Positions 1 through 29,780 of a stretch of 29,780 nt of DNA are shown here, piece by piece. Source of the DNA: a virus; IMG/VR virus record IMGVR_UViG_3300045988_067336, one strand, 5' to 3'. Below the pieces are notes generated by a model. It was not told the origin of the DNA and did no database searches. It saw only the letters and a program-made list of their open reading frames with translations. The translations under genes and the position numbers were made by a program. The stretch's first letter is position 1; each line of letters starts with the position of its first letter.

Positions 1-99
1 CCCTGCGTTGTTTGATATACACACAATATCATGTCCTTTTTTACGACACGCCGAACCGACGACGATCCACCGCGCACATCGGTTGCAACCAAAAAAAAC
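1..99. repeat. Terminal direct repeat, copy 1 (identical to 29682-29780). Most simply an assembly overlap of a circular or circularly permuted genome.
   Basis: The string ccctgcgttgtttgatatacacacaatatcatgtcc...ggttgcaaccaaaaaaaac occurs at 1-99 and again at 29682-29780. Confidence 0.9.
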
Positions 100-110
100 G
101 ACGCTATACT
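83..110 (+). promoter_or_regulatory. Sigma-70-like promoter, TTGCAA (83-88), 16-nt spacer, TATACT (105-110).
   Basis: Near-consensus -35 and -10 hexamers with 16-nt spacing. It faces rightward, back-to-back with the leftward promoter at 14-53. Confidence 0.55.
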
Positions 111-116
111 GACTCC

Positions 117-195
117 TGTACCTCATTGCGTACCTCTCTCTCAAGTGAGTGCCCAACCGGTTTCCGCACCTCTTTCCGGTTGGGCACTTTTTTAT
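117..195 (+). ncRNA. Candidate ~80-nt small RNA or terminated leader (promoter to intrinsic terminator, no ORF).
   Basis: It lies between the promoter at 83-110 and the 12-bp-stem terminator at 149-195. It has no start codon with an SD. CU-rich stretches (cctctctctc, and cacctcttt in the loop) are present. Confidence 0.4.
149..195 (+). terminator. Rho-independent terminator.
   Basis: The perfect 12-bp stem gtgcccaaccgg (149-160) pairs with ccggttgggcac (176-187). The loop is 15 nt and is followed by tttttt (188-193). Confidence 0.8.
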
Positions 196-251
196 ACCCC
201 AAAACCACAATCCGCGCCACATACTCCAGCAATACACCAATGTGAGACAAG

Positions 252-280
252 TTGTAGAAGCACTCAAACTGTTATATAAT
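252..280 (+). promoter_or_regulatory. Sigma-70-like promoter, TTGTAG (252-257), 17-nt spacer, TATAAT (275-280). The predicted start falls at or next to the ATG at 288.
   Basis: Consensus -10 with 17-nt spacing. Only 7 nt separate the -10 from the ATG at 288, and there is no SD, which implies a leaderless mRNA. Confidence 0.55.
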
Positions 281-287
281 AAGACTT

Positions 288-467
288 ATGAACGCTAAAG
301 ATTACACAGCAACAGTCCCCGAATACGCCAAGCGCTGGAAGCTCAACATCCAGACCGTCCGCCGCTTCATCCGCGAAGGACGACTCCACGCAGTCAAGGT
401 CGGCCGATGCTACTTCCTCAACCCCGACGTAATCCCGGGCGAAGGCACCCCCACCGCCAACGAATAA
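288..467 (+). CDS. Small helix-turn-helix DNA-binding protein of the excisionase/MerR-like (HTH_17) type, 59 aa.
   Basis: My own translation is MNAKDYTATVPEYAKRWKLNIQTVRRFIREGRLHAVKVGRCYFLNPDVIPGEGTPTANE. The segment QTVRRFIREGRLHAVKVGRCYF is typical of excisionase-family HTH proteins. The ORF is below the 60-aa cut-off of the ORF track. Confidence 0.65.
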   Translation: MNAKDYTATVPEYAKRWKLNIQTVRRFIREGRLHAVKVGRCYFLNPDVIPGEGTPTANE

Positions 468-1303
468 ACCACACCCAACACACACAAAGGAGCCACCCAA
501 CGAACACCGAAATCCAAACATTCGACTTCAACGCCGCAACACTGCGCATCATGACCGACAAAAACGGAGAACCATGGTTCTCAGGACAAGATGTGTGCAA
601 TATCCTCAACACCGGCACCAATCATCTACGCGAATACCTCAACGAAGACGAAATCACCAATATCCGCACTACGGACATTGGTCAGAACGGCGGTAAAGCG
701 CCTGTCTTCATCAGCGAGCCGGGCTTGTACAAGCTCATCATGCGCTCTCGCAAGCCGGAAGCCAAGGAATTTCAACGTTGGGTCACCCACGAAGTGCTGC
801 CAACCATCCGCAAGCATGGCATCTACGCCACCAAAACCACCATCGACCAAATCCTCGCCGACCCGGACTTCGGCATCAGACTGCTCACCGACCTGAAAGA
901 GGAACGAGCCAGACGAATCGAAGCCGAAAACCACATCAAGGAACTGGAACCAAAAGCGAAAGCATTGGATAACTTCACCAACATGCCCGACACTCTACTC
1001 GTCAGGGACGCAGCGAAACTCCTATCCAACGCAGGCACCCCAATCGGCGAAAAGGAACTACGCGAATGGCTCAGCCAACACGATTGGACGTACCGGCACG
1101 CCGGCACATGGTGGGCAGCCTCGGAGCGCGTGAAAGCCGGACATCTGGTCATGGTAGCGTCAAGATCGCACGGACGGCATAAGGACGGCAGCATCTACGC
1201 TTTCGCCCCGACCGTCAAGATCACCCGCAAAGGCTTGGCACTCCTCCACAGACGACTGGGAGAAACCAACCTGGCAAACGTCATCGAAACAGCCAATGAC
1301 TAA
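407..1303 (+). CDS. Phage antirepressor with an N-terminal BRO-N domain and a C-terminal KilAC (ANT) domain. The start codon is uncertain.
   Basis: IQTFDFNAATLRIMTDKNGEPWFSGQDVCNIL is a BRO-N signature. The C-terminal half (KALDNF...LLVRDAAKLL...VKITRKGLALL) resembles KilAC. The ATG at 407 overlaps the upstream gene, and the ATG at 551 would truncate the domain. An SD, AAAGGAG (486-492), precedes an in-frame ACG at 500. Confidence 0.8.
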   Translation: MLLPQPRRNPGRRHPHRQRINHTQHTQRSHPTNTEIQTFDFNAATLRIMTDKNGEPWFSGQDVCNILNTGTNHLREYLNEDEITNIRTTDIGQNGGKAPVFISEPGLYKLIMRSRKPEAKEFQRWVTHEVLPTIRKHGIYATKTTIDQILADPDFGIRLLTDLKEERARRIEAENHIKELEPKAKALDNFTNMPDTLLVRDAAKLLSNAGTPIGEKELREWLSQHDWTYRHAGTWWAASERVKAGHLVMVASRSHGRHKDGSIYAFAPTVKITRKGLALLHRRLGETNLANVIETAND

Positions 1304-1327
1304 CCAACAAGAAAAGGACACAAACCC

Positions 1328-1783
1328 ATGAACGATCCACACATCATCCTCCCCTCCGCCCGCCTCGTAGCCGACCCGGAACAGAAACAATCCAAGAACG
1401 GCACCCCATACCTCCTCATCCGCGTAGCCGCCAACGGCAGTCACAAGGACAAGCAAACCCAACAGTGGGTCGACCACGACACCATGTTCGCCACGATCTT
1501 CGAATACGACCAGCGCCTCGCCTCCACCTACATCCAAACTCTCCACAAAGGCACTCCGGTACGCGTCGAAGGCGACCTGACATGGTCCACAGGAACCGAC
1601 CGCAACGGCCAGCCTCGCACCAACTTCACCATCAACTACGCGAACATCAGCATGATCCTGAAGAGAGCCAAGACACAGCAGTCCACCCCACAGCAGCCCA
1701 CCCCGCAACAGCAGACCGCCAACTGGGGCAACACCAACCAGTCCGACCCATACGCGCAGTTCCCCGCCGTCGACGAATGGTAA
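1328..1783 (+). CDS. ssb: Single-stranded DNA-binding protein.
   Basis: OB-fold-like N-terminus (ARLVADPE...NGTPYLLIRVAAN...VRVEGDLTW), a Q/P-rich linker and an acidic C-terminal tip PAVDEW. The RBS is aaaaggac. Confidence 0.8.
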   Translation: MNDPHIILPSARLVADPEQKQSKNGTPYLLIRVAANGSHKDKQTQQWVDHDTMFATIFEYDQRLASTYIQTLHKGTPVRVEGDLTWSTGTDRNGQPRTNFTINYANISMILKRAKTQQSTPQQPTPQQQTANWGNTNQSDPYAQFPAVDEW

Positions 1784-1798
1784 AATAGAAAGAACGAC

Positions 1799-1936
1799 AT
1801 GAACAAGCAACATAACCCAATCAGCTACAAAGTAGGAAGAACCCTCGCCTACCTCCTCATCGCCCTCGCGGCCATCCTCCTCATAACAGGCAGCGTCGCG
1901 CTACTGAAACTCCTCATCGGCTTCATTCTCGCCTGA
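1799..1936 (+). CDS. Small membrane protein, 45 aa.
   Basis: My own translation is MNKQHNPISYKVGRTLAYLLIALAAILLITGSVALLKLLIGFILA. It has one long hydrophobic segment. It fills the gap between ssb and the terminator. Confidence 0.45.
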   Translation: MNKQHNPISYKVGRTLAYLLIALAAILLITGSVALLKLLIGFILA

Positions 1937-1940
1937 CCAC

Positions 1941-1969
1941 AGCCCCCACCGCCAATATGGGGGCTTTTC
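1941..1969 (+). terminator. Rho-independent terminator directly abutting the terS start.
   Basis: agccccca (1941-1948) pairs with tgggggct (1958-1965) and is followed by ttttcc. The ATG of the next ORF is at 1971. Confidence 0.7.
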
Positions 1970-1970
1970 C

Positions 1971-2381
1971 ATGCCTGCTAAAATAGGCAGTATGACAGAA
2001 GTAGTAAGAGACCACCGCGGCCGAATCATCAGCGGAGTCTGCAACCCCACAGGCAAAGGCGGATTCCAAGAACGCCCACAAGACCGAGGCTCCTGGACCA
2101 AAGACACCAGCCCAACCCGCTGGATACGTGAATTCAGCAAGCTCACCATATCGGAAATCAACGAAAAAGCAAAAGACACGACCCTGACAATGGTGCAACG
2201 GATCGCCATCAAACACGTCCTCAACGCATACAAGGACCCACACATCACAACCGACTACATCGACCGACTCGACGGCAAGGCCCGCCAATCCACCGACGTA
2301 AACGTCACCGGATACGAGCCGCCGAACATCACCCTCGAAGTATTCGACGACAACCCCGAAAACACCAAAGACAGCCAGTAA
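1971..2381 (+). CDS. terS: Putative terminase small subunit.
   Basis: It lies immediately upstream of the large terminase. It is 136 aa and has an N-terminal basic NPTGKGGFQERPQDRG segment like several TerS families. The start could instead be the ATG eight codons downstream. Confidence 0.55.
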   Translation: MPAKIGSMTEVVRDHRGRIISGVCNPTGKGGFQERPQDRGSWTKDTSPTRWIREFSKLTISEINEKAKDTTLTMVQRIAIKHVLNAYKDPHITTDYIDRLDGKARQSTDVNVTGYEPPNITLEVFDDNPENTKDSQ

Positions 2382-2400
2382 ACGCACATAGACTGGACCC

Positions 2401-3660
2401 ATGCAGATAGCAAGACCATACCGCGACCTATGGTGGTGGCTCCACACGGAGACACCACCATATCGTTACTACTGTTATTCAGGCGGCCGAGCCTCAGGCA
2501 AAAGCACCGCAGTCGCACAAAGCCTCATCCTCCGAGCCTCCGTACAACCAATCACCGTCCTCTGCGCCAGAGAATTCCAAAACTCCATCACCGACTCCGT
2601 CTACAAGCTCCTCACCGGCACCATCGAAAAATTCGGATTGCAGGGCTTCGAAATCAGACGAGACGGCATCGGCCACATCAACGGCAGCAGTTTCATCTTC
2701 CGCGGCCTTCACGACAACCTCCAATCCATCAAAAGCATCGAAGGCGTCGACGTCTGCTGGGTCGAAGAAGCGCAGACCGTCAGCAAGACAAGCCTGACCA
2801 CACTCATTCCAACCATCCGCAAAACCAATTCCACGATGATCTTCACTTGGAACCCGCTCACCAGCCATGATCCGATCTGGGCATATTTCGTTTCAACGGA
2901 CTCCGAGGAACGACTACGCCAGACATGCCACTGGCACACCACCTTCAACGACGTGCGCCGGCTCCTCAGCCAAGACGTCCTCGACATGGTAGAAGCCGAC
3001 AAGCAGACCGCCGACTACGGGCACGTCTGGCTCGGCCTCCCCTACGCCGACACCGACAACCAGCTCATCAGCGACACCATGATCAACGAAGCCATCCAAC
3101 GCGCGGCAACCGACGGCCCTGTCACCTTCGGCGTCGACGTCGCACGATACGGTAACGACCGCACCGCCCTCACCATCAAAAAAGGCAACCGGATCGAAAC
3201 ACTCGAATCATGGACACACGCAAGCATCGTCGACACAGTCGAACGAATCAGACTCCGCGCATCCCAACACCAGCCGATCGACATCCGCGTCGACGACACA
3301 GGCGTCGGCGGAGGAGTCACCGACCTACTCAAAACATACGGGCTGCCAGTTACCGGCATCAACTACGCCAGCAAAGCCAAAAGCCAGCAATACCCCAACA
3401 TCGCGTCCGAACTATGGTTCGACTTCGCCACCATACTCCCCCAACTCAGCATCAACCCACAATTAGCTGACCTCCCCAAACTCACCACCGAACTCACCAC
3501 ACGCAAATGGCACATAACCAGCCGTAACCAACGGCAAATAGAAAGCAAACAAGACTACAAAGACACCATGAACCTCGGAAGCCCAGACCTCGCCGACAGC
3601 CTGCTACTCGCCTGCTACGAGCCACCGAAACTCCCCTCATGGGATGTCGCAGTATGCTAA
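2401..3660 (+). CDS. terL: Terminase large subunit.
   Basis: Walker A GGRASGKS, Walker B-like VDVCWVEEA, and a C-terminal RNaseH-like nuclease region (FGVDVARYGNDRTAL ... IRVDDTGVGGGV). Confidence 0.9.
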   Translation: MQIARPYRDLWWWLHTETPPYRYYCYSGGRASGKSTAVAQSLILRASVQPITVLCAREFQNSITDSVYKLLTGTIEKFGLQGFEIRRDGIGHINGSSFIFRGLHDNLQSIKSIEGVDVCWVEEAQTVSKTSLTTLIPTIRKTNSTMIFTWNPLTSHDPIWAYFVSTDSEERLRQTCHWHTTFNDVRRLLSQDVLDMVEADKQTADYGHVWLGLPYADTDNQLISDTMINEAIQRAATDGPVTFGVDVARYGNDRTALTIKKGNRIETLESWTHASIVDTVERIRLRASQHQPIDIRVDDTGVGGGVTDLLKTYGLPVTGINYASKAKSQQYPNIASELWFDFATILPQLSINPQLADLPKLTTELTTRKWHITSRNQRQIESKQDYKDTMNLGSPDLADSLLLACYEPPKLPSWDVAVC

Positions 3661-3719
3661 CCAACATCCACTGCGATAAACTATGAAGCATACAACATAC
3701 CACTACAAAACGAGGTAAA

Positions 3720-5813
3720 ATGACCCTTCTCAACAACATTCGTGCGGGCTTCACAAGCGCCTTCGGCCGTACCAACGCCCCACACACCGAACCCACCCCA
3801 GCAGGCGGCAACACATGGCAGCCAATGGGCGGCAACACCATCCCCATGCACGACACGTACGACAACATCTTCCCCTACGTCAACGCCATTGCACAACGCT
3901 TCAGCACAGTAATCCCCTACGCCGTCACCACAGACGGCAGGAAAATCAACCCCGCCCCCACCGCATTAAACGCACTATACGCACCAAACGACACCTACAG
4001 CTGTCTCGAATTCCTCAAACTCATCGCCTCCGGCATCCTCACCCAATCCCACGTCGACATCCTCGTCTGGACCACGGAAGGCCCCGGCGGTAACATCACC
4101 CCAGACAACATCGCCGGCTACACCATCCTCCCCACAAACAGCCGCGTATACAACGACAGCCGCAGCGACTGGTACCACCGCGTAACCATGGACCTCGGCA
4201 ACGGCCCCCACCCATACGAATTCACCCGCGACGAAACCATCGCATTAAGCTACAGCCGTCACCCCAACGACCCAACCCGAGGCATCAGCCCCGCCATGAC
4301 CATCAAAAAATGGGCCAACGTCGACGACATGATCGCAGACTACGAACGCGGCTTCTTCGGCAACAACGCCGTCCCCGCAGGCATGCTCGGCATCGTCTCA
4401 GAAAACGCCGAAGACTTCCAACGCAACCGCGCACGCCTCGAAGAAACCTTCCGCGGAGCCGGCAACAACAACGGCATCGTCTACAACATGGTCCCAGTCG
4501 ACCCAATGACCCACAAGCCAAGCCAAACCAGCAAACTCGTCTGGGTCCCATTCCAGAACTCCAACGACACACTCGACCTGCAAACCGTATCCAACGTCGT
4601 CAACAACCGCCTAGCCAACGCGCTCGCCGTCCCCGACATCATCCGAGGCATCGACAACGGCCAAACCTACGCCAACGCCGAAATGGCCGAACGCGCCTTC
4701 ATCGAAAACACCCTCAGACCCCTCTGCATGACAGTATGGGACAAATGGCAGTTCGAACTCGACCGCATCACCGGCGGCCTCGGCTACGGCATCACCTTCA
4801 CCCTCGACCTCCCCGCCCAAACCGAAGTCGAGAAAGCACAAGCGGAAACCCAACAGATCCGCGTCAGCAGCCTCATCCAACTCGTCAACATGGGAGCTAC
4901 GGTCGAAAGCGCAGTCGAAGCACTAGGCCTCCCCGAACCCTACAAGCGACTCCACCTCCACCAGACCGACACACCACAACTCCCCCACCTCCCCTCAAAG
5001 AGAAACACCACGAAAGCCACCAAAAAAACAGACGACATGACAACCGAAAGCCAAATACTGCCAGCAACCCGCACATACGTCGACAGAGTCATCCGCCTCA
5101 CCCGACGCTCCCAAAACGGACTGAAAGACAACCTCGAAACAATCAGCCGCCAATGGGCCAACGACGTAGAAGACACCCTCATCACCCACCTCACGGAATA
5201 CGCCCGCAACACCGGCATAAAACTCGAACAGATCCTCACCGCATGGGCCGAACTCCACCCGGAAACCCCCATCGCCATCGACATCCAGTCCTACACGACC
5301 ACCGACTGGCAGAAACTCTACGACTGGACAACCCTGCCCGACAACATCAAAACAGCCTACGAAACCCACCTCCAGGAAATAGCCGACACGACATCCAAGA
5401 CCATCACCAGCAAAACCCTGGAACTCCTGAACCAAGCCGACATGGAACAATGGACCGCACACCGACTAAACGACGAACTAGCCAGAATGGGTAACGACCA
5501 CGCCGAACTAATAGCAAGATGCGAAACCGTCCAATCCCAAAGACTCGGAAGCCTATACAGCGCCCGTAACCTCAGCGAAACATTAGGCGTCAGACTCCAG
5601 AAAGTATGGCGTACCACCGGAGACGGCAACACGTGCGACTTCTGCCGGCACATGGAAGGCACGACCATACCCCTCGACTCCGCCTACATGGCAAAGGACG
5701 CGGTCGTCAACATCGGCGACCGCACCTACACCAACAGCTTCGAAACCATGAGCACGCCGAACGGCCATCCACGATGCCGCTGCTACGAAGACTACGAAGT
5801 CGTGGAAGACTAA
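3720..5813 (+). CDS. Portal protein fused to a MuF/SPP1 gp7-like minor head (head morphogenesis) domain.
   Basis: The N-terminal ~470 aa are portal-like (GISPAMTIKKWANVDDMIADYERGFFGNNAVPAGML...). The C-terminus carries the MuF signature TGDGNTCDFCRHMEGTTIPLD...NGHPRCRCYEDYEV. Confidence 0.8.
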   Translation: MTLLNNIRAGFTSAFGRTNAPHTEPTPAGGNTWQPMGGNTIPMHDTYDNIFPYVNAIAQRFSTVIPYAVTTDGRKINPAPTALNALYAPNDTYSCLEFLKLIASGILTQSHVDILVWTTEGPGGNITPDNIAGYTILPTNSRVYNDSRSDWYHRVTMDLGNGPHPYEFTRDETIALSYSRHPNDPTRGISPAMTIKKWANVDDMIADYERGFFGNNAVPAGMLGIVSENAEDFQRNRARLEETFRGAGNNNGIVYNMVPVDPMTHKPSQTSKLVWVPFQNSNDTLDLQTVSNVVNNRLANALAVPDIIRGIDNGQTYANAEMAERAFIENTLRPLCMTVWDKWQFELDRITGGLGYGITFTLDLPAQTEVEKAQAETQQIRVSSLIQLVNMGATVESAVEALGLPEPYKRLHLHQTDTPQLPHLPSKRNTTKATKKTDDMTTESQILPATRTYVDRVIRLTRRSQNGLKDNLETISRQWANDVEDTLITHLTEYARNTGIKLEQILTAWAELHPETPIAIDIQSYTTTDWQKLYDWTTLPDNIKTAYETHLQEIADTTSKTITSKTLELLNQADMEQWTAHRLNDELARMGNDHAELIARCETVQSQRLGSLYSARNLSETLGVRLQKVWRTTGDGNTCDFCRHMEGTTIPLDSAYMAKDAVVNIGDRTYTNSFETMSTPNGHPRCRCYEDYEVVED

Positions 5814-5909
5814 CCAGCCACATCAATTACCGTGGTATCATTGTGCTCGTCAGTACATCAACCACTGGTGCCACTGATGAGCACCACTGCCCCAATCCGG
5901 AAGGATGAT

Positions 5910-22736: not shown

Positions 22737-22782
22737 TGGTTTGCTCCTTTTGTGTTTGCCAAGCTCTTTGCTTGATATGTCT

Positions 22783-22824: not shown

Positions 22825-22886
22825 AAAGTTGACCGTTGCCTGCGTTCATCGTCTCCTATAGTAGATGAGCGCTATGAGTGTGAATA

Positions 22887-23230: not shown

Positions 23231-23582
23231 TGTTTTCTTTTTCCTTCATCATTCGGTTGATTGCTTCGATGGCCAAGTGCCAGTCGCTTCGGCTGATGCA
23301 ATACCATGCGGCTCTTTCGAGGCCGCTGGTCGATGCGACGAGCTTGCGGATGATGAGGCCGCATCTGCCGGAGGTTTCCGTCTTTTCGTGTCTTATGGCG
23401 GCTTTTCGTGCGTACCATCGTGCTTTTTTTAGGTCTTCGATGGGGTTCCCTTTGTCTTTGTATCGCCATAGGTATTTGATGACGTTGCCGGTGCAGAAGT
23501 ATTGGCGTTTGGCGAGGAGGATGCATTCGTAGCCGATGTTGCGGCAGTTGTAATGCGTTGGATGGTTGATGTTGTCTGTCAT
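23214..23582 (-). CDS. DUF3310-family protein.
   Basis: HPTHYN...IGYECILLAKRQYFCTGNVIKYLWRYKDKGNPIEDLKKARWY matches the DUF3310 pattern (HY...IE...gNaiKYl.R...Kg...eDL.KA.wY). The start at ATG 23582 overlaps the upstream stop as ATGA. Confidence 0.75.
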   Translation of the reverse strand: MTDNINHPTHYNCRNIGYECILLAKRQYFCTGNVIKYLWRYKDKGNPIEDLKKARWYARKAAIRHEKTETSGRCGLIIRKLVASTSGLERAAWYCISRSDWHLAIEAINRMMKEKENNAQDE

Positions 23583-24016
23583 TTGGTTCCTTTTGCTTCT
23601 TTTGCTGCTTTGGCTTTGGCTCGTCGTATGCGGGCCCGTTCCCTTTGTTTCAGTACGTAGTCGGTTCTCTGTTCGGGGGTCATGGAGTGGTATCGGGCTC
23701 GTTGTTTGGTGAGCATTTTTTCCCTCCATTCGGGGTCGGTGTGGTAGCGGGCTCGGGCGGCTTCGCGTTTCTTTTTTAATGTTTTTGGTTTGCTGTGGTA
23801 TTCTTTCTGTTTTTCTGCGTAGTGTTCGGCGTGTGCTTCCCTCCATTTCCTGTTGGCTTCGGCGCGCTCTTCTTTGTGGCGGTGGTAGTAGCGGTAGTCG
23901 CTGATCTTGCGTCGTTCTTTGGCTGATGGCTGGCTGTTGCGCATTTCGTTGATCCAGTTCATCATGTCGGCGTCGTTGAGGTCGACGACGACGGGTTCTT
24001 CTGTCTTTCTGCCCAT
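23579..24016 (-). CDS. Highly basic repeat protein of unknown function.
   Basis: The 145-aa protein is K/R/E-rich, with recurring R-x-x-Y-H/Y-Y-x-x-x-x-E modules (DYRYYHRHKEE, AEHYAEKQKEYH, ARARYHTDPEWRE, QRARYHSMTPEQR). Confidence 0.6.
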   Translation of the reverse strand: MGRKTEEPVVVDLNDADMMNWINEMRNSQPSAKERRKISDYRYYHRHKEERAEANRKWREAHAEHYAEKQKEYHSKPKTLKKKREAARARYHTDPEWREKMLTKQRARYHSMTPEQRTDYVLKQRERARIRRAKAKAAKEAKGTK

Positions 24017-24033
24017 TGTGTCCCTTCTTCTTT

Positions 24034-24333
24034 TCAGAGGCTTCTGATGATGTAGTCGGCGATGTCCTTTGGGGTGGCATCGTTTAGGGACCCGTCGTAG
24101 AAGACGTGGTAGGAGATCAGTGTGTCGGGTCCGTCGTATAAGTGCATTTCAGTGTCGGCCGGGTCGCTGTAGGCGATGATGTACATGGTTTTCTCACTGT
24201 TTTGCTTTGTGATGCGTATTGCTGAGTCTCCGGGGTTGCAGTCGACTTCGGTTGTCGTGTAGTCGTCGCCGAGGAGGCGTAGTGCGTCCGTCATTTCGTG
24301 GTTGATGTTCCTGTGTTTGTTGTTGTCGCTCAT
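24034..24333 (-). CDS. Small acidic protein, paralogue of 24365-24643.
   Basis: It is 99 aa and D/E-rich. It shares its architecture and its C-terminal ending (DIADYIIRSL versus DLITYIKNSL) with the neighbouring gene. Confidence 0.6.
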   Translation of the reverse strand: MSDNNKHRNINHEMTDALRLLGDDYTTTEVDCNPGDSAIRITKQNSEKTMYIIAYSDPADTEMHLYDGPDTLISYHVFYDGSLNDATPKDIADYIIRSL

Positions 24334-24364
24334 TTTTTGGTCCTTTTCTTGTTCGCCCGGTTTG

Positions 24365-24643
24365 TTAGAGGCTGTTCTTGATGTAGGTGATGAGGTCCGT
24401 GAGGTTGAGGTTCGGGTCGTTGGTGTCCCATTTGTAGATTTCGATTGGCTCGTCGCCGTAGTTTACGACCACTTCGAAGTCGTCGGTGTCGGGGCTGTCC
24501 GGGCTGATGTACATGTCGTAGTCGGAGTCTTCCTTGGTGATGACGATGGTGGTTTCGTTGTCGGTGAGTTCTTCGGCGTATTCGTGGGGGAGGGTGTCGG
24601 TGAGGGTTTTGAAGAGGATGTGGATGTTGTCGTTCTTGTTCAT
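24365..24643 (-). CDS. Small acidic protein, paralogue of 24034-24333.
   Basis: It is 92 aa counted from the ATG at 24643 (RBS aaaggaaa) and is very D/E-rich (DSDYDMYISPDSPDTDDFEVVVNYGDEPIEIYKWD). Confidence 0.6.
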   Translation of the reverse strand: MNKNDNIHILFKTLTDTLPHEYAEELTDNETTIVITKEDSDYDMYISPDSPDTDDFEVVVNYGDEPIEIYKWDTNDPNLNLTDLITYIKNSL

Positions 24644-24696
24644 TTTGGGTTTCCTTTTTGTTTGGTGGCGTGGGTTTTCCTTGCCTGACATTTAAC

Positions 24697-24727
24697 ACTA
24701 TATCCACAAACGTGATGTGACACGCCG
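24697..24727 (-). promoter_or_regulatory. Extended -10-like promoter (TGGATATAGT on the minus strand) with an upstream 9/10 copy of the CGACACGCCG motif.
   Basis: The minus strand reads CGGCGTGTCA-N15-TATAGT. The motif is at 24718-24727 and the -10 at 24697-24702. Confidence 0.45.
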
Positions 24728-24734
24728 ATGGGCA

Positions 24735-24768
24735 TGAAAAAGGCGGCACGCTTTTCATACGTGTCGCC
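24735..24768 (-). terminator. Rho-independent terminator after the DnaC-like gene.
   Basis: The minus strand reads GGCGACACG-tatgaaaag-CGTGCCGCC followed by TTTTTC, with one internal mismatch. Confidence 0.6.
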
Positions 24769-24778
24769 TTGGGTGTGG

Positions 24779-25624
24779 TCATAGGCCGAGAAGTCTTGCC
24801 ATGTCGGCTGAATCGTTGCGGAGCTTCTTTTCTCGCCTGTCAGCGCCTTTCACTTCGATCGGGACGCACATTTCGAGCAGTCGTGAATAGATGCGTTTCC
24901 TGTCGATGGAGCCGGGTTCTTTCAGGTCGGCTTGTGTGAGGTTGGATGTTACGATGAGTGGTTTTCCGCTCCGGTATCGGGAGTCGATAATGTTGAAGAT
25001 CATTTCGTTCATGTAGGATGTGTCGCGTTCCGCGGCCAAGTCGTCGATTACGAGCAGATCCAGACGGTTGAAGTCGTCGAGGTAGCGTTGCTTGCCGTCG
25101 AACATTCCTTGGAGAGTGTTTGTGATCCTAGCGAAGTTGGTTACGAGGCATGGACGGCCCTGACTGATGAGTTCGTTGGCGATGCATGCGGCCGCGTACG
25201 TCTTGCCGGTGCCGACTGGGCCATATAGAAGTAGTCCTTTGCCGCGTTTCTTCATTTCGGCGAAGTTGTCGACGTATTTGCGGGAGATGCTCGTGGTTTT
25301 CGGGTCGGTTCCGTCGTCGTGGGCGAAGGTCCAGTCGGCCATTTCACTGTCGGGGAAGCCGAGTTTGCGGAGTCGGTTTACTTCGATGCGGAGGTTTTGT
25401 GCCTGTCGTGCTTGTTCTTCGGCGTCACGGCGTTCGTGTGCACAGTCGCAGAGTGTGTATGGCTTCTTTTCCTTGCCGTCCCATTTGGCGATGAAGCGGC
25501 ATTGTTTTGGCGTGTGGCATTTGCCGCACATGAGTAGGCCGTCTTCGTTGAGGTAGTCGCCTTTCTCGTAGTGGCTGTCCTGGCTTGCTTCGCGAACCAT
25601 GTTCTCGATGAGGTTGGTTTCCAT
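24779..25624 (-). CDS. DnaC/IstB-like AAA+ helicase loader.
   Basis: Walker A GLLLYGPVGTGKTYAA, Walker B LLVIDDLAAE, and a sensor-like LIVTSNL. The N-terminus has a zinc-ribbon-like CGKC...CDC. Confidence 0.85.
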   Translation of the reverse strand: METNLIENMVREASQDSHYEKGDYLNEDGLLMCGKCHTPKQCRFIAKWDGKEKKPYTLCDCAHERRDAEEQARQAQNLRIEVNRLRKLGFPDSEMADWTFAHDDGTDPKTTSISRKYVDNFAEMKKRGKGLLLYGPVGTGKTYAAACIANELISQGRPCLVTNFARITNTLQGMFDGKQRYLDDFNRLDLLVIDDLAAERDTSYMNEMIFNIIDSRYRSGKPLIVTSNLTQADLKEPGSIDRKRIYSRLLEMCVPIEVKGADRREKKLRNDSADMARLLGL

Positions 25625-25653
25625 TGTGGTTCCTTTCTATTGCCTATGGTGAT

Positions 25654-25669
25654 ATTACATCACGTGTCG
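25654..25669 (-). promoter_or_regulatory. Extended -10-like element (TGATGTAAT on the minus strand) overlapped by a GCGACACG half-motif.
   Basis: The minus strand reads CCAGCGACACG-TGA-TGTAAT, 30 nt upstream of the DnaC-like start. Confidence 0.35.
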
Positions 25670-25698
25670 CTGGTATTGTGTTGCCGGCGTGTTGTGGG

Positions 25699-26508
25699 TT
25701 AGAACCAGCCGTTTTCGCGGGTGCATTCGGCTACGTGGCCTTCGGCGTCCTGTGCGATGGACGCGGCGTTCGGGTTGGACAGAACGTTGGGGCGGGTGTT
25801 GGAGCGGGTGTTGAGGTAGCCTTCGAACTTGTTGCCGAAGAGGATGTCCGGGCGGAGATATTGGGACATTTTCGGGTTACCGACCCATTCCGTGGCCTTC
25901 TTGTCGATGACCAGCTTCATATCTTCGACGGTGAAGCCTTCTTTGAGGCGGGCTTTGATGAGTCTGCGTGTGGCTTGCGTTGTTGTCTTGTACTGCGTTC
26001 CGAGCCTGTGGTTCAGGTGGTGGATGACTTCATCGATGTCGTCCGGTTTCTTCGGCTGTGAGGTGGCCTGCGGCTCTGGGATGAGCGGCTGCGGTTCGTC
26101 GGTCGGAGTTTGGAATCGCGTGGTGTCCGCGTTTGCGTTATTGCCCCAAGGGTCCTGTTCAGGGGCCTGTGTGGCTGCCGGGGATTGTGTGGCTGCGTGA
26201 GCCGGCGTGGTTGTGGAGGTCGGCTGGATGGCGGCGTAGTCGACGAGTCGATGGCCGTAGTCGTCCGTGTGGGGGTATTTGGCTAGAAGGCCCTTGTTTA
26301 TGAGTGAGCCGAGTGACCTGTCGACGGTGTCCAGCGAGCAGCCGCACCAGTCGGCGATGTACTTGCGGCTGCCTTTGAATCTGGAGTTTCCGTCTTGAGA
26401 GAAGCCATAGATGAGCGCATAGATGAGTAGCTCGTTGCCTTTGAGGTTGAGCTTGGTGCGCATCCATCCTTGGATTGCGATGAAGTTGTTGTCGTTGACG
26501 GTTGACAT
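25699..26508 (-). CDS. Replisome organiser / replication initiation protein: N-terminal winged helix plus the conserved phage C-terminal domain.
   Basis: The N-terminus LNLKGNELLIYALIYGFSQDGNSRFKGSRKYIADWCGCSLDTVDRSLGSLINKGLL is wHTH-like. The C-terminus IDEVIHHLNHRLGTQYKTTTQATRRLIKARLKEGFTVEDMKLVIDKKATEWVGNPKMSQYLRPDILFGNKFEGYL matches the conserved-phage-C-terminus (DnaD-like) pattern. The SD ggaggg precedes the ATG at 26508. Confidence 0.8.
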   Translation of the reverse strand: MSTVNDNNFIAIQGWMRTKLNLKGNELLIYALIYGFSQDGNSRFKGSRKYIADWCGCSLDTVDRSLGSLINKGLLAKYPHTDDYGHRLVDYAAIQPTSTTTPAHAATQSPAATQAPEQDPWGNNANADTTRFQTPTDEPQPLIPEPQATSQPKKPDDIDEVIHHLNHRLGTQYKTTTQATRRLIKARLKEGFTVEDMKLVIDKKATEWVGNPKMSQYLRPDILFGNKFEGYLNTRSNTRPNVLSNPNAASIAQDAEGHVAECTRENGWF

Positions 26509-26531
26509 GATGTTTCCCTCCGAGGAAAAGT

Positions 26532-26609
26532 GAATCCCACTGACTGCTACCGTCTCCACCCGGTGGCAATCAATGGGATTCGTACCATGTAGGATTATCT
26601 CTCCACGTA
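26532..26609. promoter_or_regulatory. Cluster of inverted repeats in the leader of the replication-initiator gene.
   Basis: gaatccca (26532-26539) pairs with tgggattc (26574-26581), enclosing ccacc-c-ggtgg (26556-26566). ctccac (26591-26596) pairs with gtggag (26604-26609). The half-site CTCCAC(C)/GGTGG(AG) occurs four times. Confidence 0.4.
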
Positions 26610-26642
26610 AGTGGTGGAGCATCTTACATGGCGTATGTCTTC

Positions 26643-26672
26643 AGTATAACACGTTTTCTAGACGACACGCCG
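26643..26672 (-). promoter_or_regulatory. Extended -10 promoter (TGTTATACT on the minus strand) with an upstream CGACACGCCG motif.
   Basis: The minus strand reads CGGCGTGTCG-N14-TATACT. The exact 10-mer is at 26663-26672, inside the last codons of the upstream gene, and the -10 is at 26643-26648. Confidence 0.5.
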
Positions 26673-26963
26673 ACTTATCCGGTTTATCGCATACCAGCTG
26701 AGACTGCCGTAATGGACCATTCTAAGCAGCCCTTTATCCTCAAGCTCTCCAAGGATCTCGGAAACGGCAGACGCGGGCAGTTCCGGAAACATCCGGGGAA
26801 AATCCTCATAGGGCATCCGAACCCAATAACGGCCGTCATGGAAATGGCGCTGTCGCTTCCTCTGACTCCGATAAAAGTCGTAAAGCTGAACGTAGACGGA
26901 CGCCGTGGAAACGCCCAGCCTCTTGGCCACTTTAAGCATGGACTTCGGATCCTTCAAAATCAA
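26658..26963 (-). CDS. DNA-binding protein with an N-terminal HTH and a wHTH-like segment.
   Basis: MLKVAKRLGVSTASVYVQL is an HTH, and SAVSEILGELEDKGLLRMV is a wHTH-like recognition region. Confidence 0.6.
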   Translation of the reverse strand: MILKDPKSMLKVAKRLGVSTASVYVQLYDFYRSQRKRQRHFHDGRYWVRMPYEDFPRMFPELPASAVSEILGELEDKGLLRMVHYGSLSWYAINRISRRVV

Positions 26964-27208
26964 TCCTCCTCAATGAAGGAACTGAAAAGGCTGCGATTGT
27001 AGAGAATGCCGCCAAGCTTCGACAATGCGGTCACCGGATTATCATACTTCCTGCATGCGGTATCCCAAGCCTCAAGGACTTCATCACCACCGAACTTCAT
27101 GCACAGGTCTGAGAAGAACTTACGTGACTTCTGCTCGCCTTCCTCACTGAAGTGGACTCCATACCGTTCGACGAGGGTGTTTCCGATAGTGTCATAAACG
27201 CTCATCAT
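26960..27208 (-). CDS. Hypothetical protein, 82 aa.
   Basis: The ORF has the RBS aaagga and overlaps the downstream start (ATGA-type junction). No motif was recognised. Confidence 0.55.
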   Translation of the reverse strand: MMSVYDTIGNTLVERYGVHFSEEGEQKSRKFFSDLCMKFGGDEVLEAWDTACRKYDNPVTALSKLGGILYNRSLFSSFIEED

Positions 27209-27228
27209 ATGATCCTTTCTTGCTATTG

Positions 27229-27267
27229 CGTTGCTTCAAGTATACTACGAAGCATCGAAAAGCAACG
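27229..27267. promoter_or_regulatory. Operator-like inverted repeat around a palindromic -10-like AGTATACT.
   Basis: cgttgctt (27229-27236) pairs with aagcaacg (27260-27267), flanking agtatact (27239-27246). It lies directly upstream of the 82-aa gene on the minus strand. Confidence 0.35.
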
Positions 27268-27383
27268 AAAAGGTAAGGGGCAGACACTCACCGTCCAACC
27301 TGACCAAACCCTCACTCACGTTCCCCCCGGCCACCGCCATGCCCTGTTTCTTGAGGGAGGGAGCGAGCTTCGGTAGAGAGAGT

Positions 27384-27788
27384 AAGCCTTAAGCACTGAA
27401 AAATTTAAGTGTTTTTCAGGTTAAGGCTTGATGGCTGTTTCCGTCGGTCGGTCGGTCGTACGGCGTCGGTCATAAGAGTGATGCATTACTAACACTGATG
27501 CGGCATACCCCTTCAGATCGCGCTACATCTTTGTTGATGTGGCAGTGTCGGCATCCCTGTTATTCCACTGCCGTCTGAAGGGTCGGTTGAACTTCGCACC
27601 TCTAACGTGAGTATCAACCAACTGTTAGTGGTCGTCCCAATAATCCAAGGCAAGGGCTGTAGCTGGAGAGTGTTATCGTGCCTCCGCACCCAGCTGTACA
27701 TGTTTTTGCATGTACCCGTGGTAGACTGGATTTCGGTTATTGTCAAACCCCATTATAGCACGTCGTGCTGTGGTGGGGTTTTCCTTTT
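27384..27788 (+). ncRNA. Candidate structured non-coding RNA of about 400 nt or more. The 5' end is undefined and the class is unassigned.
   Basis: No credible ORF is present. The region holds a long interrupted hairpin at 27384-27429, a three-way junction (27509-27517 with 27574-27582 enclosing hairpins 27525-27540 and 27541-27572), helices 27585-27590/27614-27619 and 27661-27668/27682-27695, a hairpin at 27696-27715, and a 3' intrinsic terminator. Confidence 0.45.
27745..27788 (+). terminator. Rho-independent terminator on the + strand, inside the leftward arm.
   Basis: aaacccca (27745-27752) pairs with tggggttt (27774-27781), with inner pairing agca/tgct, and is followed by tcctttt. On the minus strand no U-tract follows the stem. 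Confidence 0.7.
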
Positions 27789-28285
27789 ACGCCATCCACG
27801 CATTCCCGGCATTCCTCCCACACGCTTTCCACCACACATGCCTCCAGAACGCACGTAAAGGACCCTCCAACCGATTTTCTAGCCAAACCCGATAACTCGT
27901 TAGGGCCAACCCATGACAGCCCGTCAAAAAGGCCTTCACGCAAGAAAGCGACGTTCCAGCCCAAACAAGCACCGAAAAGCATCGAGAACACCAAGCCGTG
28001 AGAGACCACCCAAGCCAAGCACGGACCAACTCTCCTCCATGCTCCCCTACAGGTCGGGTATCGGGACCAAGGCCCGAAGGGCAACACCGAGGTGAAGCCC
28101 GTATCCTCCTCCTTGCCCAGAGCCATGGAAGAAGCCTCGAAGACATCAGGTCAGACTACATGGCTCCATGTCACGCTCACCGAAGACATCAAGGCTAGGT
28201 TCTCATCGCTCTCGGCTCCCAATCCCCTTGGGTTGGGATTGGCTTCCCTTCGGACACGCCCGCGGCCCCCCGCGGGAGCCGCCTT
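27789..28285 (+). other. Non-coding C+A-rich spacer that ends in GC-rich hairpins.
   Basis: There is no ORF with protein-like composition. The line 27961-28020 contains only 2 T in 60 nt. Helix gagccatg (28120-28127) pairs with catggctc (28159-28166). The direct repeat cgaagacatca occurs at 28138 and 28181. Hairpins: ccaatccc/gggattgg (28219-28242) and cccgcgg-cccc-ccgcggg (28259-28276). Confidence 0.5.
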
Positions 28286-28288
28286 ATT

Positions 28289-28337
28289 TATATTATCCCT
28301 AGAGTATCTAACTCTATATTATCCCTCTATAGTATGG
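28289..28337. repeat. AT-rich segment with two direct repeats, TATATTATCCCT..AGTAT.
   Basis: tatattatccct occurs at 28289-28300 and 28315-28326 (26-bp spacing). Each copy is followed by an agtat element. Confidence 0.8.
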
Positions 28338-28341
28338 TGCC

Positions 28342-28441
28342 TGATTTTGCGGCTATGCCAACACTGATTTTGCGGCTATGCCAACACCGATTTTGCGGCC
28401 ATGCGCCATGAATGTGCGGCCACCACCCTGATTGTGCGGCC
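28342..28441. repeat. Iteron-like direct repeats: two perfect 23-bp tandem copies plus three degenerate copies.
   Basis: tgattttgcggctatgccaacac occurs at 28342-28364 and 28365-28387. The core T(T/G)TGCGGC recurs with GCGGC starting at 28349, 28372, 28395, 28416 and 28436, giving spacings of 23, 23, 21 and 20 bp. Confidence 0.85.
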
Positions 28442-28470
28442 GTCACTTATTGCGTCTGGGTTGACTGAAC

Positions 28471-28493
28471 AAAAAGGCCCCGGCCAGTCCGGG
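28471..28493 (-). terminator. Weak intrinsic terminator after the DUF1064 gene.
   Basis: The minus strand reads CCCGG-actgg-CCGGG followed by gccTTTTTg. The stem is only 5 bp. Confidence 0.35.
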
Positions 28494-28538
28494 AATCTCT
28501 TCCCAAGACCAACCGGGACCATGCCCGTTCCTAGACCG

Positions 28539-28874
28539 TCACGTCTCCTTGATGCTCATACCATACCGTCGCGCGAACAGCTTGCTCTTGAGCCTATACA
28601 CGTCAGTTCTCATGCCTTTCACATCCTCGACGACCTCCTTGCCGTCCTCCACGTAGACGAAGTCGGCCACGTAGTAAACAGGTCGATAATGCCTGCCGTC
28701 CACGTCGAAGGCCGGTACGAGCTCATAACGCACCTGCCGGCGCAGATCCTCGATGCTTCCGTTCTCCTCCATGCCCTTCAGGACGAGATACCTGTCGGCC
28801 TCCATACGCGAGTCGAAGGCAATGCCGTCGACGACGGTTTTCTTCGCGTGATATTTGCTCGCTCCATGCCACAT
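28539..28874 (-). CDS. DUF1064-family protein (predicted PD-(D/E)XK-like nuclease / resolvase-like).
   Basis: SKYHAKKTVVDGIAFDSRMEADRYLVL ... VPAFDVDGRHYRPVYYVADFVYVEDGKEVVEDVKG matches the DUF1064 pattern as I remember it. Confidence 0.7.
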   Translation of the reverse strand: MWHGASKYHAKKTVVDGIAFDSRMEADRYLVLKGMEENGSIEDLRRQVRYELVPAFDVDGRHYRPVYYVADFVYVEDGKEVVEDVKGMRTDVYRLKSKLFARRYGMSIKET

Positions 28875-28877
28875 GGT

Positions 28878-29288
28878 TTACCTTCCGGTGCTTCCGAAGC
28901 CGTTGTCGCCACGCTCCGTCGCGTTGAACGCGGAGACCTGCTCCAACGGTTCGCGGACCACCGGGATCATGACCAGCTGGGTGACCTTGTCCCCCGCCTC
29001 GAACTCATAGTCCTCGGCCCCATGGTTGTAAAGCTTCACCACGATGCTTCCCGTGTACCCCTCGTCGATGAGCCCGGTGCTAGTGATGCCGTGCCTGACG
29101 TTGAGACCGCTCTTGCTGACGAGCAGTCCGGCACACCCGTGAGGCAATGCCACATGCACTCCTGTGTCCACGGCGACGCTTCCGTAGGCCGGTACGGTCA
29201 CGGCCTTCGGCGTGCGCAGGTCCAGTCCGGCATCGGTCCCGTGGCCTCGTGACGGCATGTGCGCTCCGTTGTCCAACATGACTTCCAT
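28878..29288 (-). CDS. dut: dUTP diphosphatase (trimeric dUTPase).
   Basis: The motifs GTDAGLDL, LVSKSGL, GLIDEGYTG, GDKVTQLV and RGDNGFGSTG are present in the canonical order. Confidence 0.9.
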   Translation of the reverse strand: MEVMLDNGAHMPSRGHGTDAGLDLRTPKAVTVPAYGSVAVDTGVHVALPHGCAGLLVSKSGLNVRHGITSTGLIDEGYTGSIVVKLYNHGAEDYEFEAGDKVTQLVMIPVVREPLEQVSAFNATERGDNGFGSTGR

Positions 29289-29371
29289 GGTGTTTTCTCC
29301 TTTGTGATATGATTGTCGATGTCGGTAAGTTTTTTGGTTTCCCTTCCCGACTGCCTTTCATTGGATAAAAT

Positions 29372-29413
29372 AATACCCACCCAGGTGAATGCCCGGGTGG
29401 GTATTATTTTTTT
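29372..29413. terminator. Bidirectional intrinsic terminator.
   Basis: aatacccaccc (29372-29382) pairs with gggtgggtatt (29395-29405). On the + strand it is followed by attttttt, and on the - strand by attttat. Confidence 0.7.
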
Positions 29414-29423
29414 GGTGTTCGCG

Positions 29424-29648
29424 TCAGCGCTTGCTGTAGCCGCCGCTCAGCATCTTGACGAGCCAGTAGAAGAAGTAGATTCCGCTCGTGCAGATGGAAT
29501 AGATGAGGACCTTGAGGAATCCGGGGGCCTTCTTCTTGCCGCTGTCGTCCGACTGGGCCGGCGTTACGTTGTTGATGATGATCGGCTGCGGTGCGCACTG
29601 CGGCTGGGTCGGCTGGGTTTCCGTCTGGTTGATGTTCTGTTCGGTCAT
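29424..29648 (-). CDS. Small membrane protein, 74 aa. It is the first gene of the leftward arm.
   Basis: The N-terminus is Q/P/T-rich and a C-terminal TM segment is present (FLKVLIYSICTSGIYFFYWLV). The RBS aaaggaa precedes the ATG at 29648. Confidence 0.6.
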   Translation of the reverse strand: MTEQNINQTETQPTQPQCAPQPIIINNVTPAQSDDSGKKKAPGFLKVLIYSICTSGIYFFYWLVKMLSGGYSKR

Positions 29649-29681
29649 TTTGATTCCTTTCAATGTTGGTAGGTCGTTGTG

Positions 29682-29780
29682 CCCTGCGTTGTTTGATATA
29701 CACACAATATCATGTCCTTTTTTACGACACGCCGAACCGACGACGATCCACCGCGCACATCGGTTGCAACCAAAAAAAAC
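29682..29780. repeat. Terminal direct repeat, copy 2 (identical to 1-99).
   Basis: Exact 99-nt identity with the first 99 bases. Confidence 0.9.
29695..29734 (-). promoter_or_regulatory. Leftward promoter of the switch region: a TG-rich extended -10 (TGTGTATATC on the minus strand) with an upstream CGACACGCCG motif. It equals 14-53 in the duplicated left end.
   Basis: The minus strand reads CGGCGTGTCG-N24-TATATC. The exact 10-mer is at 29725-29734 (=44-53) and the -10 at 29695-29700 (=14-19). It is back-to-back with the rightward promoter at 83-110. Confidence 0.45.

Follow-up and report, generated by a model that had tools for sequence, protein, structure and literature searches.

Positional strand asymmetry in a family of human-gut siphophages and its relation to a putative iteron origin

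The DNA studied here, which we refer to as the window, is a stretch of 29,780 nucleotides (nt) held as IMG/VR record IMGVR_UViG_3300045988_067336, and it represents a family of ~30-kb siphophages of the human gut. The two strands of the window differ in base composition far more than expected by chance: the + strand is rich in C and A across the head genes, and rich in G and T across the tail, lysis and early genes. A reading in which this bias depends on position and is of the replication type is well supported. We also identified a putative lambda-style replication origin at 28.26-28.45 kb, and we give an even chance to a model in which the genome is replicated bidirectionally as a theta structure from this origin at 28.3 kb, with forks that collide in the tape-measure gene and with a strand bias of the opposite sign to that of bacteria and lambda.

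Layout of the strand bias along the genome

The bias was measured as GC skew, as the keto fraction, which is the share of G+T, and as the keto skew, (G+T)-(A+C). In 1-kb windows of the + strand, the GC skew ranged from -0.09 to -0.41 with A in excess of T over 1-11.5 kb, and from +0.13 to +0.39 with T in excess of A over 13.5-26.5 kb. The all-site G+T fraction was 0.27 to 0.40 over 0-11 kb versus 0.62 to 0.71 over 14.5-26.5 kb. The cumulative GC skew had its minimum at position 12,024 and its maximum at 26,512, and the cumulative keto skew had its extremes at 12,377 and 26,515, respectively. The cumulative keto excursion amounted to 4,098; none of 200 mononucleotide shuffles exceeded 649, and none of 500 shuffles of 300-nt blocks exceeded 2,176.

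A first-pass annotation, made from the letters of the sequence alone, had proposed this polarity from hand counts of five 60-nt lines. All five counts were exact on recount, and the sliding-window skew over the whole sequence showed opposite arcs. The 29,681-bp circle that it had assumed was confirmed by a 99-nt terminal repeat. Two sign changes split the replicon into arcs, as in a replication-type asymmetry, with a neutral zone and a ramp intervening: a C+A-rich arc of ~11-12 kb, a ramp of 3-4 kb, a G+T-rich arc of ~12-14 kb, and a neutral zone of 3.1 kb. The description of two near-equal halves of 14.5 and 15.2 kb had to be abandoned, because the 3.1-kb neutral zone and the 3-4 kb ramp part the arcs. 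Similarly, the C+A-rich stretch that had been drawn from ~26.6 kb through the junction to ~11.6 kb held good for the head arc but not for 26.5-29.5 kb, where the G+T fraction was near neutral at 0.46 to 0.54; the last piece, at 29.5-29.68 kb, was G+T-rich at 0.68. For the G+T-rich arc placed at ~12.5-26.5 kb, the plateau and the abrupt end at 26.5 kb stood, but the switch at 12 kb is a gradual ramp. The 26.5-kb switch was completed within at most 200 nt, with G+T fractions in 100-nt windows going from 0.57-0.70 (26.0-26.5 kb) to 0.44-0.51 (26.5-27.0 kb).

The third-position G+T fraction on the + strand was 0.20 in the genes at 407-10811 (A.22, C.58, G.14, T.06), 0.80 in the + strand tail and lysis genes at 13680-19055 (A.05, C.15, G.40, T.41) and 0.82 in the - strand early genes at 19131-26508 (A.03, C.14, G.56, T.27). 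Read on their coding strands, the head and early genes were near-identical in third-position composition, and the tail and lysis genes, which belong to the same operon as the head genes, were their mirror image. In an asymmetry that is coupled to transcription the sign follows the coding strand, whereas here the coding-strand fraction was 0.80 in the tail and lysis genes and ~0.2 in the head and early genes.

Both sign changes fell within co-directional blocks of genes. One lies within the + strand late operon, and the other at 26.5 kb within a - strand block, as the genes at 26658-27208 share the - strand with the initiator gene. At the convergent junction at ~19.06-19.13 kb, the composition of the + strand was continuous. 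The bias was independent of gene orientation and reached its greatest strength at third codon positions, with synonymous sites and non-coding DNA both skewed, and the unannotated DNA tracked the arcs with G+T fractions of 0.32 in the C+A-rich arc and 0.67 in the G+T-rich arc. These results bear out three statements of the first-pass annotation: that the skew flips inside the co-directional head-tail block (from 0.20 to 0.80 at third positions), that the coding strand is C/A-rich in the head genes and G/T-rich in the tail and lysis genes, and that the skew persists in non-coding DNA. Since the bias flips inside a co-directional operon, is unchanged over a convergent junction and is seen in intergenic DNA, it is positional and not transcriptional, and its cause is most likely DNA replication rather than gene expression.

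The bias in relatives, sister clade and nearest isolates

Relatives and sister-clade contigs were taken from IMG/VR. All of the ~35 relatives, each assembled independently, which have genomes of 28.3-30.9 kb and tape-measure proteins that are 76% to 93% identical, showed the same profile as the window. In each of five complete circular relatives that were rebuilt, the cumulative skew had its minimum within 12.28-12.88 kb and its maximum within 26.68-27.84 kb, followed by a neutral zone. The rebuilt genomes were 75% to 87% identical in pairwise nucleotide comparisons, and other family members reached 93%; a pattern shared at 75% to 93% nucleotide identity is neither an assembly artefact nor a recent event.

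The portal protein of the window was present on contigs from human-gut samples. A megablast search with the first 25 kb of the window against isolate phages gave no match, and the best match found for the endolysin in bacterial genomes was one of 52%, in Varibaculum. In the search against isolate phages, the catalytic domain of the endolysin resembled those of Arthrobacter, Brevibacterium, Rothia and Propionibacterium phages. From this, the host is likely to be an actinobacterium.

To polarize substitutions at third positions, we used a general-Markov three-taxon model fitted by expectation-maximization (EM) to six triplets. Polarization by singletons, which yielded a large common-to-rare excess that we took for an artefact of saturation in the fast direction, was replaced by the EM approach. 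The ancestral and descendant G+T fractions were 0.11-0.24 and 0.13-0.25 in the head arc, 0.69-0.81 and 0.70-0.80 in the tail arc, and 0.78-0.83 and 0.75-0.83 in the early arc. On the + strand, the head arc was dominated by T>C and G>A, and both the tail arc and the early arc by C>T and A>G. Expressed as per-base substitution probabilities on the + strand, T>C was 0.05-0.23 versus 0.02-0.04 for C>T in the head arc, while in the tail arc C>T was 0.13-0.21 versus 0.05-0.11 for T>C, and A>G was 0.07-0.22 versus 0.02-0.05 for G>A. Thus, C-to-T and A-to-G changes accumulate on the - strand over 0-~11 kb and on the + strand over ~14-26.5 kb. These estimates indicate that the bias is stationary and is still being produced by a position-dependent transition bias.

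A sister clade comprised ~65 contigs of 28-33 kb (L194-L219, L036, L244-L310), with identities of ~81% for the large terminase and ~65% for the tape measure, and of 56% to 81% for the structural proteins. It contained the same structural genes, SSB, Erf and exonuclease, but no homologues were found in it of the initiator, the DnaC-like loader, DUF1064 or the dUTPase. Its initiator is instead O-like, with four iterons inside the gene (positions 5557-5651 in contig L211), as in lambda. The + strand G+T fractions were 0.40-0.47 in the head genes, 0.49-0.53 in the tape measure, 0.53-0.64 in the tail genes and 0.55-0.67 in the early genes, with the switch from G+T to C+A located at the iteron-bearing initiator gene and the switch from C+A to G+T at the tape-measure gene. 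Since the two clades have different origin modules and the same layout of signs, the sister clade represents an independent replicate. The amplitude of the skew differs ~four-fold between the clades and correlates with the replication module. Lysogeny was considered as a cause of the difference in amplitude and rejected, as the open reading frames (ORFs) examined in the two clades, which were those of at least 110 amino acids in the sister clade, revealed no integrase. In ten sister-clade genomes that were rebuilt, the cumulative extremes were uninformative about the position of the ramp, with a weak skew and an offset in base composition.

It was also noted that the sister-clade genomes carry a GH25-LysM endolysin and a RusA-like gene, and that upstream of the terminase gene, at a distance of a few kb, they contain a tract of 1 kb that is similarly C+A-rich (G+T 0.28-0.32) to the one in the non-coding DNA of the window. 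Two sister-clade members were found on contigs much larger than a single genome, namely L288 (IMGVR_UViG_3300014917_000051, 142,612 bp) and L202/L284 (56,432 bp). The phage may be integrated or concatemeric in these contigs, or the assemblies may be chimeric, and the 142-kb contig might reveal the host. In a more distant group of 42-kb gut phage contigs (L072-L082), with tape measures ~49% identical, 5-6 kb upstream of the structural genes had + strand G+T fractions of 0.28-0.40, drifting to 0.50-0.56 downstream; a strong positional skew may be more widespread among such gut phages.

The nearest isolates were the Bifidobacterium asteroides phages BlindUri1 and BlindBasel1 (MT006234, MT006235), which have the same gene order and a portal protein ~50% identical to that of the window. 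The skew of BlindUri1 was weak; its cumulative curve was lowest in the tape-measure gene and highest at the divergent early region, with arcs of 16.08 and 16.18 kb. Unlike in the window family, the G+T fractions of these phages were only 0.40-0.57 in 1-kb windows and mostly 0.38-0.57 at third positions, and the phages were isolated from the honeybee gut.

Putative origin, ramp and possible mechanisms

The iteron core of the putative origin, GATTTTGCGGC, was found at positions 28343, 28366 and 28389, with degenerate copies at 28410 and 28430 and a spacing of 20-23 nt. Lambda-like iteron origins have at least 3 phased direct repeats beside an AT-rich tract, and here there are 5 copies, at 28343-28440. 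The same architecture was found at the same place in all five complete relatives, with an iteron sequence that differed between them. The iteron stretch and the DNA-binding part of the initiator (~26109-26288) both failed to align between genomes that are otherwise 77% to 88% identical. This paired divergence, noted qualitatively and without statistics, is the pattern expected of a co-evolving initiator-origin pair. The true start of the initiator gene is at 26508, where it is accompanied by a ribosome-binding site.

The iterons are located in a non-coding region of 1.3 kb (27209-28538) that is conserved across the family, with a diversity of 0.12-0.21. There was no 3-nt periodicity of the variation at 27230-28200 and no Rfam match in the region as a whole. 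Other features of the region were a palindrome at ~27380-27425, a (GTCG)n-like run at ~27440-27470 and a strongly C+A-rich tract at 27790-28200. At a hairpin between these, the composition changed from mildly G+T-rich (27.4-27.8 kb) to C+A-rich (27.8-28.2 kb).

On the other side of the circle, the third-position G+T fraction was 0.06-0.18 at 8.8-10.9 kb, 0.22-0.56 at 10.9-13.3 kb and 0.74-0.88 from 13.9 kb on. It climbed from ~0.1 at 10.5 kb to ~0.8 at 14.4 kb, and the family average followed the same smooth curve. Logistic curves for six complete genomes had midpoints at 12.6-13.0 kb, which is 1.0-1.4 kb into the tape measure, and scales of 0.5-0.86 kb. The midpoints fell before the antipode of the iterons, by 0.1-1.0 kb. 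At up to 3 mismatches, the ramp contained no copy of the iteron motif, there was no DnaA box anywhere in the window, and synonymous diversity showed no dip in the ramp. The sole inverted repeat in the ramp, of 22 nt at 12396/12817, was not conserved in a third of the relatives and showed no compensatory changes.

A fixed start of replication should give a sharp switch in skew and a variable meeting point of forks a ramp, from which we infer an origin at ~28 kb and a terminus in the tape measure. Models of termination and the shape of the skew have been discussed previously (PMC3317982). Under this model, the phage's own initiator and DnaC-like loader, together with the host replisome, would start theta replication of the circle, bidirectionally, from the iteron origin. 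The meeting point of the two forks would vary around a centre ~1 kb into the tape-measure gene, which would produce the 3-4 kb ramp, while the changes beside the origin would be sharp. The switch at 12 kb would mark the terminus, and the continuously made (leading) strand would be C+A-rich. More speculatively, both new strands may be made continuously in the 3-kb neutral zone, which may lie between the first priming sites, about one Okazaki length from the origin.

The sign of the bias is the main difficulty. As a general rule for bacteria, G exceeds C on the leading strand (PMC3269012). With the origin in the iteron region the leading strand would be C+A-rich, and it is only with an origin at 12-13 kb that G would exceed C, so that the simplest chemistry points to an origin at 12 kb. 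We know of no replisome that gives a C+A-rich leading strand. The sign alone cannot tell which strand is damaged or miscopied, because every C-to-T change is at once a G-to-A change in the complementary strand. Two speculative explanations for an inverted sign are that errors of lagging-strand synthesis dominate (T opposite G and G opposite T), or that the exposed template suffers mainly from lesions at its G and T, with deamination of C and A playing the smaller part.

Other observations also weigh against the model. The iterons are located inside the neutral zone, 1.8 and 1.3 kb from its sharp boundaries at 26.55 and 29.68 kb, respectively, so that they are not the exact pivot of the skew; the sharp edges match boundaries of gene blocks and probable promoters, and the model accounts for the neutral zone only speculatively. 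Furthermore, the skew is weaker near the origin and gains strength over the first 5-9 kb away from it. The third-position G+T fraction on the + strand increased from 0.74 in the initiator gene to 0.91 in the exonuclease gene on one side, and decreased from 0.27 in the anti-repressor gene to 0.08-0.12 at 9-10.8 kb on the other, unlike the prediction for simple coupled forks. The spread of the ramp midpoints had a standard deviation of ~160 nt relative to the tape-measure coordinate and ~330 nt relative to the antipode, in six genomes that vary too little in length for these values to discriminate. Finally, replication is deduced here from sequence.

The first-pass annotation had stated that by the bacterial rule the 12-kb switch would be of the origin type, which is arithmetically right given the cumulative minima at 12.0-12.4 kb, and it had left a choice between an origin in an unexpected place and an inverted polarity. 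We favour the second option over an origin in the tape-measure gene, since the ramp is broad and without a conserved element, is nearly antipodal to the iterons, and is accompanied by the same sign in the sister clade. Replication of standard polarity, which would start in a broad zone at ~12-13 kb in the tape measure and end in or at the edges of 26.5-29.7 kb, is improbable, although it is the strongest of the alternatives. It takes the cumulative minima and the maximum at 26.5 kb as origin and terminus by the bacterial rule (PMC3269012), the ramp midpoint is slightly steadier relative to the start of the tape measure than to the antipode, and fixed fork barriers, as which the initiator-bound iterons could serve, would suit the sharp boundaries. 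However, a site-specific origin should give a sharp switch and not one that extends over 3-4 kb, and the ramp is without an origin-like element, be it an iteron copy, a DnaA box, a dip in diversity or a conserved inverted repeat. A zone of sequence-independent initiation would have to be located opposite the conserved iteron origin by coincidence, in two clades with different modules.

Slightly less probable still is a recombination scenario in which the phage exonuclease performs long 5'-to-3' resection from a break or end near the neutral zone, so that the exposed 3'-ending strands deaminate before Erf anneals them. The phage encodes the RecE-like exonuclease, Erf and SSB, and both geometry and sign fit ordinary deamination: on the right side of the break the - strand would be single-stranded, and on the left side the + strand. 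However, resection would need to run 12-14 kb from each side, the skew grows away from the neutral zone rather than decaying, and the sister clade, with the same exonuclease, Erf and SSB, has only a weak skew. In addition, the large terminase is of the P22/Sf6 type of headful (pac) phages by both its Pfam and its solved-structure match; its resemblance to Sf6 gp2 implies headful packaging, and thereby virion DNA without unique ends.

Selection on transcripts or codons, by which the head and early genes would prefer C- or A-ending codons and the tail and lysis genes G- or T-ending codons, is very unlikely and has already been largely refuted. It would agree with the similarity in coding-strand third positions between head and early genes, and with the sharp boundaries at the edges of gene blocks, but the smooth ramp passes through single genes, the intergenic DNA follows the arcs, and the genes of the neutral zone are transcribed but without skew. 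Codons that end in C and in T are generally read by the same tRNAs, so that translation gives no motive for swapping them. Moreover, the amino acid composition was pulled along with the bias: at aligned orthologue positions, amino acids with G/T-rich codons made up 37.5% of the tail proteins versus 28.7% in the sister clade, and amino acids with A/C-rich codons made up 32.2% of the head proteins versus 28.6%. The intergenic DNA, the continuity across the convergent junction and these opposite amino acid shifts agree with the earlier exclusion of transcription and codon selection.

Least probable of all is a historical relic, a scenario that the first-pass annotation had raised against its own reading, in which the block of tail and lysis genes would have been turned round or taken over from a lineage of opposite bias: the tail genes of the sister clade are only 41% to 63% identical, but the sign change is a gradient inside an intact tape-measure gene, an inversion leaves the coding-strand composition of a gene unchanged, and the presence of the pattern in all relatives, the stationary composition, the mirror-image substitution rates in the two arcs and the still active bias in the tail arc refute it, unless rate heterogeneity badly misleads the triplet model.

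Gene map, comparable systems and implications

The + strand block (407-19055) extends from the anti-repressor gene to a holin-like gene, with head genes followed by tail and lysis genes. The order is Ant, SSB, probable TerS, TerL, portal, a protease-capsid fusion, a collagen-like gene, connector genes, the likely major tail protein, two chaperones, the tape measure, Dit, three further tail genes, an amidase and the holin-like gene. The - strand block (19131-27208) contains small early genes, the RecE-like exonuclease, Erf, the DnaC-like loader, the DnaD-like initiator and two regulator-like genes. The coordinates of the main features are listed in Table 1.

Table 1. Coordinates of compositional segments, genes and other features in the window (G+T fractions refer to the + strand; HTH, helix-turn-helix)
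Feature	Position	Strand	Remarks
Terminal repeat	1-99 = 29682-29780		Assembly overlap, 100% identity; circle 29,681 bp as assembled
C+A-rich arc	280-10811		All genes on + strand; all-site G+T 0.27-0.40
SSB	1328-1783	+	PF00436
Large terminase	2401-3660	+	Terminase_3 (Pfam); closest solved relative Sf6 gp2 (4IDH/4IFE, E = 3e-42)
Sign-change ramp	10812-14400		Tail chaperone genes, tape measure, start of Dit gene
Tape-measure gene	11610-13661	+	
G+T-rich arc	14401-26508		+ genes to 19055, then - genes 19131-26508; all-site G+T 0.62-0.71
Convergent late (+)/early (-) junction	19056-19130		+ strand composition unchanged across junction
RecE-like exonuclease	20737-21639	-	
Erf-like single-strand annealing protein	21759-22352	-	
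DnaC-like helicase loader	24779-25624	-	Found in strong-skew clade; not found in sister clade
Replication initiator	25699-26508	-	N-terminal HTH_36 / DnaD-like and C-terminal Phg_2220_C domains
Near-neutral zone	26509-29681		- strand genes plus 1.3-kb conserved non-coding stretch
Abrupt left edge of neutral zone	26509-26657		Intergenic, between initiator gene and upstream - strand HTH gene
HTH gene	26658-26963	-	Third-position G+T 0.34
Small regulator-like gene	26960-27208	-	Third-position G+T 0.47
Hairpin	27745-27781	+	17-bp stem
Putative replication origin	28260-28445		GC palindrome 28260-28276; AT-rich repeat tract 28285-28337; five iterons
DUF1064 gene	28539-28874	-	Pfam match; third-position G+T 0.47
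dUTPase gene	28878-29288	-	Pfam match; third-position G+T 0.56
Small membrane protein gene	29424-29648	-	Third-position G+T 0.64

The collagen-like gene (7718-8095) encodes Gly-X-Y repeats and contains eight overlapping copies of a 54-nt unit in 9-nt steps. This repeat is locally almost skew-free. Many of the contigs of the relatives begin or end ~3.6-3.7 kb upstream of the tape measure, which corresponds to the collagen-like repeat, and the repeat thus appears to break assemblies. A hairpin at 10820-10859 is located directly after the gene for the probable major tail protein, at the start of the ramp, and another at 17298-17339, with a 19-bp stem followed by a run of T, separates the last tail gene from the lysis genes. 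The two hairpins are probably transcription attenuators or terminators within the late operon.

Among the early genes, the - strand genes at 24034-24333 and 24365-24691 (99 and 108 amino acids) resemble paralogues, with similar C-terminal halves that end in ...IRSL and ...IKNSL. The motif TGATGGTTTTCATTTGTTTGGTCCTTTT was found at 19388-19420, 20440-20472, 22724-22756 and 24321-24353. Its reverse complement gives a ribosome-binding site plus ATG (AAAGGACC...ATG) for the - strand early genes, and the motif thereby helps to fix the orientation of these genes. No phage-encoded deaminase was recognized among the early ORFs inspected or scanned, and Rfam and tRNA scans of the window found nothing.

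Long false ORFs were noted at 17901-19034 (-), 28401-29252 (+), 19140-19997 (+) and 23214-24080 (-), because the skew depletes stop codons on both strands. Two are located opposite real genes, one of 377 amino acids opposite the amidase and one of 283 opposite the dUTPase, and the rest represent wrong frames or non-coding DNA. The translations were of low complexity, with no family match where tested. Such ORFs could mislead automatic gene callers.

Bacterial chromosomes and theta plasmids (Lobry-type asymmetry) resemble the family in having two opposite arcs, independent of gene orientation and strongest at synonymous sites, with one switch adjoining the initiator and origin and the other roughly opposite. 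However, the amplitude in the family is several-fold larger, as all-site GC skews reach 0.4 and skews at third positions are 0.6-0.8; there is a strong covariation of G and T, and the sign is reversed relative to the putative origin. The family also differs in the 3-kb neutral zone round the origin and in the distal switch, which is a ramp of 3-4 kb.

Lambda, the origin of which has been mapped, resembles the family in its overall layout, with an iteron origin between divergent transcription units, and in carrying an exonuclease and an annealing protein. Its iterons adjoin an AT-rich tract; there are four, and they are located inside gene O, just as those of the sister clade are located inside the O-like gene. 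The GC skew of lambda follows the bacterial rule: rightward of the origin and across the late genes it is +0.05 to +0.18, over most of 24-38 kb it is -0.01 to -0.10, and nowhere does it exceed 0.18. There is no flip within the late operon, unlike in the family, and the third-position G+T fractions of the late genes are 0.55-0.63 in lambda versus 0.08-0.3 in the family, the departure of which from 0.5 is several-fold larger and of opposite sign.

Protein-primed linear genomes that are replicated from both ends, such as those of adenovirus and phi29, reportedly show a skew that switches at the centre, according to Grigoriev 1999. Like the family, they have mirror-image arcs, and the switch between the two, at the centre, is gradual. 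The family differs in having no protein-primed polymerase, a circular assembly and a headful-type terminase, and its sign is opposite to that expected from displacing the 5' halves.

Vertebrate mitochondria have an asymmetry between heavy and light strands and replicate by strand displacement (PMC3269012). The magnitude is similar to that in the family, C-to-T and A-to-G changes occur on one strand, and the amino acid composition is dragged along. Unlike the family, which has two mirror-image arcs with plateaus, mitochondria have a single polarity across almost all of the genome, with a gradient that follows how long the DNA remains single-stranded. In addition, the phage encodes an initiator and a helicase loader for a coupled bacterial replisome.

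Our literature searches turned up no earlier description of such a skew in phages. We consider it somewhat less than an even bet that the family combines an ordinary iteron origin and the host replisome with an asymmetry of mitochondrial strength and reversed sign, in which case the dominant mutational asymmetry would be one undescribed for cellular replicons. If so, GC skew would be unsafe for finding phage origins, as the reversed sign would put the "origin" inside a tail gene. The ramp in the tape measure would be a sequence-encoded record of the places where converging forks meet, and its width would give an estimate, from sequence only, of the variability of the meeting point without a termination system.

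The family would be a natural system in which to study what makes replication mutationally asymmetric, with related clades that differ in replication module and ~four-fold in skew. The bias matters for gene prediction, for codon-based host prediction and for the phylogenetics of gut phages. In these phages, mutation pressure alone has given the head and tail genes of one operon near-opposite codon usage, and has shifted the composition of their proteins.

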